A DNA stretch of 64,000 nucleotides from a virus (IMGVR_UViG_3300001525_000014:1-64000); one strand, 5' to 3'. Positions 1 to 64,000 are shown, counted from the stretch's first letter. The notes: generated from the letters alone by a model not told the origin. Numbers and translations are program-made.

Positions 1-74
1 CAATAGCTGATTTAATAGATCCAAAATATGAACCAGCAGAAGAGAAAAACAAGAATCAAATAAGCAATAATTAG
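1..74 (+). CDS. 3' end of an upstream gene (partial, runs off window start)
   Basis: Frame 3 is open from the window edge to TAG at 72-74 (...EPAEEKNKNQISNN*). A hairpin plus T-run follows. Confidence 0.4.
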   Translation, partial: IADLIDPKYEPAEEKNKNQISNN

Positions 75-89
75 ACTAAAGATATTATT

Positions 90-117
90 AGCCGGGGCGA
101 ATAACCTCGGCTTTTTT
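90..117 (+). terminator. Intrinsic terminator-like hairpin
   Basis: AGCCGGGG (90-97) pairs with CCTCGGCT (105-112), one G.U pair, 7-nt loop, followed by a T-run at 113-117. Confidence 0.6.
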
Positions 118-259
118 GTTAAAATTTTTTGTAGTTTTTAAACTGTTGTGAGTGGACGAAAAGGAGAAACAGTGATAATTTGCTCCCCCGGCTCGCGTTT
201 GAGATCCGACTACCCCCGGCATCTTAGTTGACATTGCTGATAGATTGTCAACCTTGCTC

Positions 260-276
260 GCGGGAACATAAAAAAC
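260..276 (+). promoter_or_regulatory. Conserved 17-mer GCGGGAACATAAAAAAC (copy 1), contains a GGAAC core
   Basis: 16/17 identical to 785-801. Lies about 40 nt upstream of the ATG at 315. Confidence 0.3.
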
Positions 277-314
277 AATTCTATACTATTAGCAATCAAT
301 AAAACATAATCAAT

Positions 315-59700: not shown

Positions 59701-61384
59701 CAAGCTCATATCTTTTACCACCAACCATAGTATTAGACGACATTAACTAGAACCCATTATCCGTCATTTTTGGTGTTCTAATATCTGCGATCCACTTAAC
59801 GGGGGAAGCTTGCCCATATTTGTCATACAAAACAATACCATAGCGATAAATTTCGTCGCGTCTAAGGGATTTTATTAACCATGTATTATCATTTACACCT
59901 GGATCAAAATTAGCAGACTCTATAGCTGATGGATGAAAATTACTATCTATGTAAAATACTTTGTTTTGTTTAATGTTTGACTTTTGCGAATAGTTGTATA
60001 ATGTTCCTATCTTCCTTTTATTGTTCTCTTTTATGCAAGAATCTTCTACCTATGAACAAATAACAAACCTCCATTCAATATTTTTTCCAGAACCGCCAAC
60101 CCATTTACATTTAGAATCAAATACATAACCATCTCGTGACAATAGCGTAGAGTTATTTATATTATTATATGTCGCATCGTAACAATCATGATTAAATGGT
60201 GGTACCTAAACATCATCACTATCAATATCTTTCTAAGATGCGTCAATTTTAAACTCATTGTTTCTATTAATATCAGATACAACGCTTATTTTATCACTGT
60301 TAAATCTAAACGCTCTAGCATCCCATTTATCAAAGTCATTTATAGATGTTTGAATTGTTTTTACATTTGCCGCAAACAGTAACCCATCTTTCTATGAAAG
60401 TGAGTTTGGGACAACCCTAATTCCTTGTAATGAATTCAATTCTTCTACACTAACTTGTTCTATTGGATCATTCCCAACATCATTTACTATAATCTTCGAT
60501 GATTTATATTTATCAAAATCAATTGGCTAATCATATATTACAGACACAATAGGCATTTGTCCATTTTGCGTATACTGTATCCTAAATATTTTGATATAAT
60601 TAAAATGATAATAATTTTTAGGAATTTCTATTGATATTTTTACTCCGCAATTTGATTGAGCTCCCTATTTACCACCAGATTTAATATAATTATCAATATA
60701 GTTTCCAATAGGTATCTATTCGCACTGCACTGAGGCACCTGTATGTATTCCATACCTATTATACAGTTGATAGCAATAACTTACAACGCTAAATTCAATT
60801 TTACCAGGAATATAACCTTCAAATACAGGTGGGGCGCAAGTTGTTTCTGGGTATATCAAACATTTGTCTAGTTCGTTATAAATAAAGTCATCATCTCTAT
60901 TTATATTAAACATCATTATTGGATGTATAGAATCAGCTATGTATAGTTTTATATTATGCTCACTCTCATAATTTAATTCTATATTAAATACATCAGGATA
61001 TTGCTAGCCATCCGTATCTAACAAAGGAGCATCAACAACTGTTCTCTTTTCTGTTATTTCGTTAAACGAATCATCATGACTATCTTTCCCTATAGCGTTC
61101 TTAAAGGTAAAAACTCTTAATCTAGAATCATCTTTACAGACAATTACACCCAAGTCTCTAATCTAGCCAGTTGCTACAATCTTCTAATCAAACTTAGTAA
61201 AACTACCAGCTAATCTAACACCTTTTATTGGCATTATTGATCCATGCTTGTTATCATTCTAATAAGACACGATCTTTAGATTTCTTGCTTCAAGATACTG
61301 GTTTGTAGCAACAACAGAAATATCATCGTCGCTATTCATTCCACCAGCAAAACTATTTATTTGTGGCTCTATATTAGTATCCAT
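56708..61384 (-). CDS. large late structural (tail-associated?) protein (1,558 aa with TAG as sense)
   Basis: Frame 1 joins 58199..58657, 58922..59143 and 60716..60916. About 36 in-frame TAG and no TAA or TGA between the ATG at 61384 and the TAA at 56708-56710. Confidence 0.7.
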
Positions 61385-62237
61385 AACAGTAGTCGTTAAA
61401 GTTTAATTGTTTCTAGCCCGTTTCTTTGAAGAAATCTTCGTCTGCGCTCCAATCAGGAATGAGTTTTGTCCACTCGTTCTTTATACTAATCATTTCGCTT
61501 TCGTTAGGCATCATTGATTCTGCATAAGCTTGATTTCTGTAGAAGTTCCATTGCTGCTGAATATATGTATAGGTACCCATGTTGTACCTAGCTTTACCAC
61601 CAAGAGAACCTTTGAGGAACTTAGGAAAGCTTAGTTTCATCATAACATACCAATATATGGCTTCCTAGTATGACGCCATATCTGGAATAAGTGGATAACC
61701 TCTTTCATCTGTAGCAATAGCTTTATAGGAGAGTTTAACCTTGCCTTTATCCTTGTTAAATACTATCCATCCTGGTTTAATCCAATATGTAGGTTCATTT
61801 ATTTTGTACTCCTTTATGGCGTTAAGTAGTGCTGTAGAGCCATTAATACCCAAAAATTGAGACCTATGTGTCATCAATGGTTTTCCAGCTGGCTGTTCTG
61901 GAATATGATGTGCATGATTATGAGAGTTAGTCTATACTTTAAATGAGCTCTCATCCTTTCGTACCTAAACCCAGTTTGTACCATCTGCAGAATAGGATAC
62001 AGCTGTCAGCGATTCGAGATCATCTGGGATTGGAACCTAATGTTCATGTATTTCAAATATCGGCACACAATCTTCACCAGACTCTTTCTATACATACTAT
62101 ACTGGAGCCCCAATCTTTTCGACAGCCTCGAATATCCATTCACGTATATCTGTGACTCTTATATTCTTTTCTGACATGTCTGCATCAGCCATAATCTTGG
62201 CTATGACTGACTCACATTTTGTATACTTGTATATCAT
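61374..62237 (-). CDS. late hypothetical protein (287 aa with TAG as sense)
   Basis: Frame 2 joins 61413..61643 and 61665..61877. ATG at 62237, TAA stop at 61374-61376. Confidence 0.65.
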
Positions 62238-62682
62238 CTATATTTATATAATCTTGTTTATTAAATATAAGTTGAGCAAGGTGTCTTTTATTTTCTCGTA
62301 CCATACATAGCTAGTACCTATACCTAGCTGGAAATACCCTTGGGATCTTAGACCAGTATAGTCTATATTTGTACCCATTAGAGTGCTCATTAAGGTGATA
62401 TATTCTCTTACCTTCCTACTTACTAGACTTGTAGTCTACAGACAAAGACTTATCTGTATAACTTTTAGGCTTATACTTAACTATACAAACAAAGCCTAGC
62501 CCATAAGGCATTTTAAAGGGTTGTGAGCGCTCTAATATCTCGTCCTTGACAACTTTATTAAATTCATCCAATATACGCTTATATCGCGCGTATTTAAGCT
62601 CTACGTCGTTATTTTTAACGTAGTCTCTGTATATATCAGCTATAGTGTAGCTTTTTTTACTTTTCCTTATCTTGAGGACCAT
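62212..62682 (-). CDS. late hypothetical basic protein (156 aa with TAG as sense)
   Basis: Fragment 62416..62682 continues through TAG to TGA at 62212-62214. Confidence 0.6.
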
Positions 62683-63358
62683 TTGGCTTCACACTAGCTA
62701 ACGTTGAGTTGTTACTATCATCACTAGGTCTCTTAAGCATAAATGCTAACTCATTAGTCATAATAGCTTTCTTTATATCTGGGATCATCCATCCTGGAAT
62801 GTCTACACTATCTTCATCTGGAGCATCTTGAGATAGATCCATGTTTCCATCTACATAGATATAGTTAAAATCGTCTATTCCTTCACCTTCTATATAGATA
62901 TATCCATTATCAAACCAGCACGTAGGTTCAGCCCATGTATATCTTCTAAAACTATGGTAATGTCTGCGCATTTTGTGCATATATTGAATAACACATCCAC
63001 TGGCATCATGTACGCTAACTATGTCGTCAGCAGAATTCTCCATAGTATGAATTGCATCTTTTGTTCTTTTTCGTATAATGTGACAGCGGCAAGAGTCATC
63101 GCAACAACAATCGCATTTTGCATCGGGATCTAATATAAGTTCTAATGGTCCAATTGTCGACGATAACGTGTCATCAGGATCTATACCATCTCCTGTCTCT
63201 TCGTCTTTTTCCGCCTATTTCTTAGCAAGATACGCCTTATACTACATTACCCAAGCAGCGATTTGATCTCTAGATAAATCTTCGCTTTCACTTATATTGT
63301 TATTGCGTACGATTAGAAGTATGTCGTCTATTATCGTACGAAGTGAAAACATTTTCAT
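62657..63358 (-). CDS. late hypothetical protein with a Cys cluster (233 aa with TAG as sense)
   Basis: Fragment 62657..63043 extends upstream through two TAGs to the ATG at 63358. Contains CDCCCDDSCRCH. TAA stop at 62657-62659. Confidence 0.6.
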
Positions 63359-64000
63359 ATCGCTTCTATTATTCTTACATCTTCTTCTTTAAGTAAATCA
63401 TTCGTATTGTGTATCTTGTACTTATACACATCTTTCTTCTTCCAGTCGAATGTTATTAATCTCTTAAAGAAGTTCTTTTTGTTTTTATATTCTCTATGTT
63501 TATAGATATAGAGGTATTGAGTATTCTATACATCTAGCTTAATATTAACACTATCTTTACCTATTGTATAGTATATTTTGGTAAGATTATTATATTGTAG
63601 ACTATCTGTATAAGTAGAATCTTTAAGTATAGTTATAATATTACCCCCTACCCCCTTACTCTTATTAACGTTTAATATCTACTTCTAAGTTGCTGCTGCC
63701 TAGATTTCCTTAGCTTTAAGCTTTGATTCTTTGCGTACAGAATCAAGTTGCTGTACAAGTTTATCATTATAATCTTTAAGCTTATTCATATCTAGTCTTA
63801 AAACACCAGAAGCCTACTAGGCACCATTCAAGGCATCCTAATAGGCTTCGATGTTATTATTTGCCATTTTAAGCTCTTCTGAGAGCCTATTAGCTTTGCT
63901 GTGGTAAATTATACCAGAAGCTAAACAAAAGGCTACAAGAAGCCCTAAAACGGTTTTAAGCAGCAGCTTGTAATTCTTCTTTATTATTTGAATTAGCTGC
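63355..64000 (-). CDS. membrane-anchored coiled-coil protein, 5'-partial (i-spanin/Rz-like topology, speculative)
   Basis: Frame 0 is open to the window edge. Encodes TM segment LLLKTVLGLLVAFCLASGIIY followed by a coiled-coil-like sequence. About 7 in-frame TAG. The TGA at 63355-63357 overlaps the next ATG (ATGA). Confidence 0.5.

Follow-up and report, generated by a model that had tools for sequence, protein, structure and literature searches.

The stretch of viral DNA analysed here, IMGVR_UViG_3300001525_000014:1-64000, comprises 64,000 nucleotides (nt) and is referred to below as the window; by sequence comparison it is a ~64 kb portion of a ~100-kb crAss-like phage genome near Burzaovirus (Crassvirales, Suoliviridae, Oafivirinae). 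Its genes fall into two convergent blocks, an early/replication block on the + strand (1..28793) and a late block on the − strand, and our subject is the amber codon TAG, which ends genes in the first block and occurs within the genes of the second. The closest published genomes are cr124_1 (Burzaovirus faecalis, NC_055899.1) and cr7_1 (Burzaovirus coli, NC_055895.1), to which the window is similar in sequence and colinear in gene order, in keeping with membership of the order, family and subfamily named above. The early/late junction lies at 28793/28799, where 5 nt separate the TAG that ends the last early gene (28791-28793) from the TAA that ends the first late gene (complement of 28799-28801); a search extending 1 kb to each side of this junction (28791-28801) revealed no terminator-like hairpin.

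Late genes of the − strand contain in-frame TAG codons

Right of 28.8 kb, standard-code calling of open reading frames (ORFs) on the − strand returned short fragments only. With TAA and TGA as the sole stops, reading through TAG yields ten contiguous − strand genes from 28799 to 63999, contained in open frames at 28799-34291, 34288-52539, 52521-54356, 54326-55942, 55914-56798, 56708-61402, 61374-62243, 62212-62688, 62657-63388 and 63355-63999, the longest of which include frames of 1831 and 6084 codons. There are 254 in-frame TAG across these open frames and 251 from start codon to stop, in agreement with the ~250 counted by hand in the initial annotation. The ten genes amount to 11,751 codons, 251 of them TAG (2.1%) and none TAA or TGA, which disposes of the concern that such a stop had been overlooked. 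In the other two frames of the same DNA, TAA and TGA together make up 7.8% of codons, so that chance would put ~915 of them into 11,751 codons; the log10 probability of finding zero is about −413. Measured differently, code 11 places 21% of the − strand region within ORFs of at least 100 amino acids (aa), a share that rises to 100% when TAG is read through.

The late genes terminate in TAA (eight) or TGA (two). That only these two codons serve as late stops had been claimed before, with a tally of seven TAA and two TGA that has to be corrected; likewise it is the 5′ end of the tenth gene that the window edge removes, and its terminator, left out of that tally, is a TGA at 63355-63357, inside the window. 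The first TAG falls between codons 14 and 89 in all nine complete late genes, and our count places it at codon 33 in 28799-34282 and at codon 57 in 34288-52515, exactly where it had been reported. Virion proteins, an RNA polymerase and a spanin-like protein are encoded in the block, whose genes (g1 to g10) are as follows.

28799..34282, − strand: g1, 1827 codons with 41 TAG, stop TAA; large virion/cargo-type protein
34288..52515, − strand: g2, 6075 codons with 124 TAG, stop TAA; giant protein that includes a virion RNA polymerase region
52521..54323, − strand: g3, 600 codons with 15 TAG, stop TAA; 69.5% identical to the coding sequence (CDS) at 63367-65280 of cr7_1
54326..55930, − strand: g4, 534 codons with 11 TAG, stop TAA; 86% identical to cr7_1 CDS 65299-67071
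55914..56717, − strand: g5, 267 codons with 7 TAG, stop TAA; glycine-zipper protein, 80.5% identical to cr7_1 CDS 67055-67810
56708..61384, − strand: g6, 1558 codons with 35 TAG, stop TAA; virion structural / tail stabilization protein
61374..62237, − strand: g7, 287 codons with 7 TAG, stop TAA; tail tubular protein homologue (phrog_33740)
62212..62682, − strand: g8, 156 codons with 2 TAG, stop TGA; IHF/histone-like protein (phrog_12177), 88% identical to cr7_1 CDS 73356-73826
62657..63358, − strand: g9, 233 codons with 2 TAG, stop TAA; virion structural protein (phrog_9863), 72.5% identical to cr7_1 CDS 73801-74493
63355..63999, − strand: g10, cut at the window edge at its 5′ end, 214 codons seen with 7 TAG, stop TGA; Rz-like spanin candidate (phrog_739, E 6e-5)

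Glutamine is the main non-TAG counterpart of late TAG in relatives

Sequence comparison indicates that late-gene TAG most likely encodes glutamine (Gln, Q). We compared g3-g10 at the DNA level with cr7_1 and cr124_1 and, at greater distance, with cr10_1 and cr118_1; the 984 database homologues of g6 were rejected for this purpose as circular, since those listed are full-length (1532-1575 aa) and their TAG codons had hence already been translated. The 85 window TAG in g3-g10 align in cr7_1 to TAG in 45 cases, to Gln in 19 (CAA 11, CAG 8) and to other codons in 21, a pattern with which both the reverse comparison and cr124_1 agree. Of the CAA and CAG codons in the window, 23-24% face a TAG in the relative, a share that does not exceed 2.7% for the codons of any other residue, and in an empirical log-likelihood Q ranks first, ahead of Glu by 32 units with cr7_1 and by 48 with cr124_1. 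When the two relatives are pooled, CAA and CAG occur 19 and 21 times opposite window TAG; because CAA is two mutations away from TAG and is still about as common as CAG, the substitutions fit synonymy better than mutational proximity. Alignment with crAss-like homologues, the check proposed in the initial annotation, gives Gln as the main non-TAG counterpart in the close relatives, and strong protein homology spans the TAG positions.

We also computed a Codetta-like column score against standard-code homologues in cr10_1 (Boorivirinae) and cr118_1 (Uncouvirinae). Q was the top residue at window-TAG columns, making up 11% there against a background of 3.9%, and also over the 211 unique TAG columns obtained by pooling all recoded genomes; as a control, the score recovered 37 of 43 sense codons. 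Among other candidate standard-code controls, cr4_1 and cr113_1 were dropped because they are themselves TAG-recoded (53-55 TAG), and cr50_1 was dropped on account of one TAG; recoding was seen in cr272_1 and cr131_1 in Oafivirinae and in cr4_1 and cr113_1 in Loutivirinae, and cr10_1 and cr118_1 are without it. The Gln content of late proteins is 5.3% with TAG counted as Q and 3.2% without, that of early proteins 3.3%, and TAG supplies ~40% of all late-block Gln codons.

Genes of the early block end in TAG

The early block contains ~39-42 ORFs that are readable in the standard code and include PHROG and Pfam matches. In a non-overlapping set of 42 + strand ORFs, 24 stop at TAA, eight at TGA and ten at TAG. 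All ten TAG positions given in the initial annotation (3′ ends at 74, 738, 5643, 6622, 7053, 7373, 7906, 9598, 15449 and 28793) were verified as in-frame TAG closing an open frame. Eight of these ORFs have homologues in cr7_1 and/or cr124_1 (28245-28793 only weakly), and homology to these two genomes did not confirm the gene status of the ORFs ending at 74 (an edge fragment) and at 738 (48 aa). The homologues of the eight terminate 0-12 residues from the same point, and for five of them (5350-5643, 6625-7053, 7155-7373, 7415-7906 and 28245-28793) the stop is TAA or TGA in one relative or both, which supports the earlier reading of + strand TAG as a stop. For 14844-15449 the stop of the homologue is TAA in cr124_1 but TAG in cr7_1, and the homologues of 6116-6622 and 9194-9598 end in TAG in both.

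5350..5643, + strand: ORF of 97 aa ending in TAG, next TAA/TGA after 12 codons; both homologues end in TGA, and the aligned part stops 11 residues short
6116..6622, + strand: ORF of 168 aa ending in TAG, backup TGA after 1 codon; 94/155 residues identical to the cr7_1 homologue
6625..7053, + strand: ORF of 142 aa ending in TAG, backup TAA after 4 codons; both homologues end in TAA at most 3 residues away
7155..7373, + strand: ORF of 72 aa ending in TAG, backup TAA after 1 codon; both homologues end in TAA
7415..7906, + strand: ORF of 163 aa ending in TAG, next TGA after 33 codons; 105/161 residues identical to the cr7_1 homologue, whose TAA lies at most 3 residues away
9194..9598, + strand: ORF of 134 aa ending in TAG, next TAA after 28 codons, within the start of 9643-10200
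14844..15449, + strand: ORF of 201 aa ending in TAG, backup TGA after 7 codons
28245..28793, + strand: ORF of 182 aa, the last early gene, ending in TAG; weak cr124_1 homologue (46/151 identical) ends in TGA

Genes for DNA replication and recombination in the block, assigned from PHROG and Pfam, are the following.

18650-20608, + strand: DNA polymerase
21177-22103, + strand: DnaB-like helicase
22612-23352, + strand: Sak4/RecA-like ATPase
24673-25644, + strand: primase
26315-27214, + strand: AAA ATPase
27202-28248, + strand: exonuclease

A suppressor tRNA gene in the closest relatives

Both cr124_1 (47896-47967) and cr7_1 (9123-9194) carry an identical 72-nt tRNA gene with anticodon CUA, annotated tRNA-Gln; its position is the 5′ end of the late strand, beside a dUTPase gene. 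In locus L011, this tRNA lies ~4 kb from sequence homologous to window positions 160-325. Given this synteny, the corresponding gene would be expected ~4-5 kb to the left of the window start in the present genome.

The window itself holds a tRNA-like gene at 5963-6043 (+), which scores 49.6 bits against the Rfam tRNA model and has good acceptor, D and T arms. Its anticodon arm consists of a 5-bp stem and an 11-nt loop, GACUGUAUCAG, followed by a 7-nt variable region, and ARAGORN assigns it no anticodon. It occupies the site of a normal tRNA-Met(CAU) in cr7_1 and cr124_1, and IMG/VR gave no match to an exact 50-mer. It could represent a pseudogene or else a tRNA of non-canonical type; separately, that it takes part in decoding is a remote possibility. 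As a suppressor it was rejected, its loop containing no CUA. An antisense 'tRNA-Pyl(cta)' reported by ARAGORN under relaxed settings was also rejected, having a low score and a poor acceptor stem and overlapping the sense tRNA. A permuted tmRNA (trans-translation RNA) at 8374-8600 (+) (8344-8691 according to ARAGORN) encodes the tag peptide GNVNNIVDYTCVA followed by a stop and is syntenic with the tmRNA of cr124_1 and cr7_1; such an RNA alongside stop-codon reassignment may deserve attention.

Two proposed decoding regimes and their alternatives

We consider it very likely that the genome is decoded in two regimes that follow the coding strand, with TAG a stop in + strand early genes and a sense codon for Gln in − strand late genes, and with a phage suppressor acting as a translational lock. 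This reading draws on the codon pattern and gene identities, on the alignments that point to Gln, on the homologue ends that mark early TAG as a stop, and on the suppressor tRNA present in the relatives. Early + strand genes would be read by the unmodified host apparatus in the standard code, with TAG terminating. An amber suppressor tRNA(CUA), whose gene, judging from the closest relatives, is probably located where the recoded strand begins, 5′ of its late genes and beyond the window, would be charged with Gln, accumulate during infection and outcompete release factor 1 at UAG. Since the first TAG comes at codon 14-89 in each complete late gene, full-length late proteins would be made only once suppression is active, which would place a lock on the structural and lysis genes. 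The model already in the literature has the same form.

Several observations weigh against this reading. No tRNA with a CUA anticodon was found in the 64-kb window, and the phage records that are BLAST neighbours of the relatives' CUA tRNA are variously annotated Gln, Arg or Trp. The distant-homologue signal for Gln is weak at ~29% identity, with a score of 0.16 for Q and 0.01 for K. The zero count of internal early TAG is partly circular, since TAG counted as a stop when these ORFs were called, and RefSeq reads through TAG in early genes of cr124_1 too, with 14 in-frame TAG in 8 early-strand CDSs, all ending in TAA or TGA. Finally, the presence of the tRNA in this genome, its charging with Gln and the temporal block on late translation are inferred.

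The RefSeq treatment of cr124_1 amounts to a single code for the whole genome, under which TAG would mean Gln on both strands and be rare in early genes, with translation carrying on past the TAG at + strand ORF ends as far as the following TAA or TGA. Five of nine TAG-ended window ORFs have such a codon 0-7 codons further on; there, stopping and reading through yield nearly the same protein, and the Pfennig preprint (bioRxiv 10.1101/2022.06.29.495998) terms such blocks 'dual-coded'. We nevertheless regard a single code as unlikely, in view of the closely matching homologue ends described above and of the frequency of TAG, which is 0 in 7,319 codons inside early genes against 2.1% of late codons. 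The read-through tails of the early ORFs are conserved in neither length nor sequence except where they overlap a conserved next gene, and there is no sign of selected backup stops, the distance to the next stop after an early TAG not differing from that after TAA- or TGA-ended genes (Mann-Whitney p=0.33). A conserved read-through extension of ORF 9194-9598 was tried and rejected, because its tail is explained by the highly conserved 5′ end of the overlapping next gene. The comparison suggests that several early-strand RefSeq CDSs of cr124_1 are over-extended and that their TAG codons are really terminators, and the homologue ends favour the dual-code reading over the single-code annotation of that genome. 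CDSs of cr124_1 with early-strand TAG read-through include 36435-36932 and 44749-45219.

Other explanations keep late TAG as a sense codon and differ in who supplies the decoding, or in the residue. Suppression by the host, through its own amber suppressor or because TAG is sense in the host, would need neither a phage tRNA nor a temporal switch; the lack of a tRNA(CUA) in the window fits it, as does the remark of Yutin et al. (PMC7886860) that recoded crAss-like genomes exist without a detectable suppressor tRNA. Both closest relatives do, however, encode tRNA(CUA) at a syntenic site just past the window, and about a quarter of early genes terminate with TAG, as fits a standard-code host, so that host supply seems to us very unlikely. 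Insertion of a residue other than Gln (such as Glu, Ser, Lys, Tyr or pyrrolysine) finds some encouragement in the mixed isotype names of similar tRNAs, in the label 'Pyl' that ARAGORN gives to CUA anticodons by convention, and in K and E following close behind Q in distant homologues. It becomes extremely improbable in the face of the close relatives, where Gln is 6-7 times commoner than any other residue opposite window TAG and leads by at least 32 units, of the near-equal use of CAA and CAG, and of the metaproteomic evidence presented by Peters et al. (2022, PMC9523058) for genetic code 15, in which TAG encodes Gln, in two crAss-like phages. One might also suppose from the 21% coverage by code 11 ORFs of at least 100 aa that the late region is decayed or non-coding, or that TAG arose from CAG as a C-to-T sequencing artefact. 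The complete absence of in-frame TAA and TGA makes the chance of this negligible, as do the strong protein homology across TAG positions and the retention of about half of the g3-g10 TAG in independently assembled relatives; a C-to-T artefact would moreover have produced TAA from CAA, and none is seen.

An addition to the two-regime reading, which we hold to be very doubtful, is that late suppression, acting on the codon that ends ~9 early proteins, lengthens a defined subset of early proteins at the C terminus by as many as 34 residues, as a programme of functional second isoforms and not a side effect that is tolerated; examples would be 7415-7906 (+33 codons), 9194-9598 (+28) and 28245-28793 (+34).

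Late proteins and non-coding elements

The giant product of g2 matches the RNA polymerase gp66 of the Cellulophaga phage phi14:2 (PDB 6VR4; phmmer E 1.6e-16). Its metal-binding motif, TGSDFDIDK, is identical to that of gp66 and contains the DxDxD signature of giant virion RNA polymerases. According to Pfam, the C-terminal third of the protein contains an SF1 helicase, DUF7831 and DUF1848; the counterparts of g2 are the 5443-aa CDS of cr7_1 and the giant CDSs of cr272_1, cr131_1 and cr10_1. The adjacent g1 is homologous to cr124_1 CDS 7917-14123 (22% identical over 1763 aa) and gave no match in a PHROG search. For g6, the match to phrog_28748 (E 9e-113) is accompanied by 67-69% identity to a 'virion structural protein' of cr7_1 and cr124_1. 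The tail tubular homologue g7 is 81% identical to cr7_1 CDS 72518-73381, and its counterpart is called tail tubular protein in cr10_1, cr4_1 and cr113_1. The spanin candidate g10 is 83% identical to cr7_1 CDS 74490-75155, in which all seven TAG are kept as TAG.

The early block contains several non-coding elements. A RAGATH-1 hammerhead ribozyme at 2588-2668 (+) scores 75.4 bits, above the gathering score, begins at the stop codon of ORF 2194-2589 and is ~80% conserved in cr7_1, where it is unannotated; 70 nt downstream of it, a weak match to a type-P1 twister (2739-2790, +) reaches 28 bits, below the gathering score. At 9605-9640 (+) there is an inverted repeat, GTAGGGTGAGAGAAATCTCTCCTAC, which is conserved and stands just 5′ of the ATG of the sigma-factor-like gene 9643-10200, whose 5′ end is more than 95% identical in nt to the relatives, well above the local average.

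Whether or not TAG is read through, no frame of the 2.1-kb stretch 12690-14843 holds an ORF of at least 150 codons. The stretch is nevertheless 79.5% identical to cr7_1 25136-27248, with mismatches that lack 3-base periodicity and indels that are not multiples of 3, and a core of ~400 nt (13900-14290) is 96% identical to the two Burzaovirus genomes and shows ~98% per-column conservation among 25 unique IMG/VR sequences. The region is unannotated in RefSeq relatives except for one doubtful CDS. Searches of Rfam gave no match to it, and neither strand has excess folding energy (z +1.2, +1.8), results that do not support a known or structured RNA; the stretch may be an origin, a regulatory DNA element or an unstructured RNA.

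Relation to Burzaovirus and to other recoded phages

The initial annotation had pointed to a crAss-like phage with amber-reassigned late genes, an identification borne out by cr124_1 and cr7_1. The replication module of the window is ~81% identical to theirs in nt and the DNA polymerase 79% identical, and gene order matches on both strands. The ten − strand genes pair one-to-one and in order with the annotated late CDSs 41186-75155 of cr7_1, which likewise has the giant RNA-polymerase-containing CDS, and the late block of cr124_1 is colinear too; g3-g10 are 69-88% identical. Late genes are amber-recoded in these relatives as well, with 8-60 in-frame TAG per late CDS that RefSeq already reads through, and 40-45 of the ~85 aligned window TAG in g3-g10 are kept as TAG. 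Synteny also extends to the tmRNA and the tRNA site. TerL, portal and major capsid protein, whose phylogeny serves formal genus and species assignment, are encoded beyond the window; in cr7_1, for instance, the genes for major capsid and portal fall past the part equivalent to it.

The window also differs from these genomes. Genes g1 and g2 (28799-52515) are just 20-32% identical to their counterparts in any fetched relative, in contrast to the flanking late genes and the replication module, and g2, at 6075 aa, is longer than the 5443 aa of cr7_1; the contrast would mean either very rapid evolution of g1 and g2 or their exchange as one module. Early genes in the first 8 kb of the window are ~70% identical or unalignable, and the aberrant tRNA-like gene replaces the relatives' tRNA-Met(CAU). 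Because of the levels of identity in the replication module, the first 8 kb and g1/g2, and because the best database match to g6 is 75% identical, the genome appears to be that of a new, fairly divergent Burzaovirus-like phage; exact-protein look-ups, and an exact 50-mer sought in IMG/VR and in JGI metagenomes, gave no match to the window.

That amber recoding is not new, as the initial annotation acknowledged, is evident from published work on strand-linked, block-wise code use. Yutin et al. (2021, PMC7886860) found reassignment in crAss-like phages mostly confined to late genes; Pfennig et al. (Mgcod preprint, bioRxiv 10.1101/2022.06.29.495998) described a code switch that tracks the coding-strand switch, with the early block dual-coded and a Sup-CTA tRNA at the 5′ end of the recoded strand; and Borges et al. 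(preprint, bioRxiv 10.1101/2021.08.26.457843) reported preferential recoding of the spanin gene and of the tail tube gene two genes downstream. The window resembles these code 11/code 15 phages in reading TAG as Gln in late structural and lysis genes only, with replication genes in the standard code, and in the coincidence of code switch and strand switch. Its spanin-like and tail tube genes are also heavily recoded, g10 having seven TAG against six CAA/CAG and g7, three genes downstream, seven against seven. We see no difference in kind from these phages; the window ends before the position at which the Mgcod preprint places the suppressor tRNA. Late-only reassignment and a proposed translational timer are shared with phages of code 4 (TGA to Trp), for example some Zeta and Epsilon crAss-like phages and the Jade and Agate phages, from which the window differs in codon and amino acid, with 0 in-frame TGA in its late genes.

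Recoding is documented for hundreds of crAss-like phages; the phenomenon is already well described for them, and the window adds one divergent genome to a picture that is unchanged. The choice of code decides its annotation: 35 kb of which about one-fifth is covered by ORFs of at least 100 aa under the standard code become ten genes when TAG is read as Gln, among them one for a 6075-residue protein containing a virion RNA polymerase. The window is also a clean example in which a dual-code annotation matches the homologue ends better than the single code applied by RefSeq to cr124_1.

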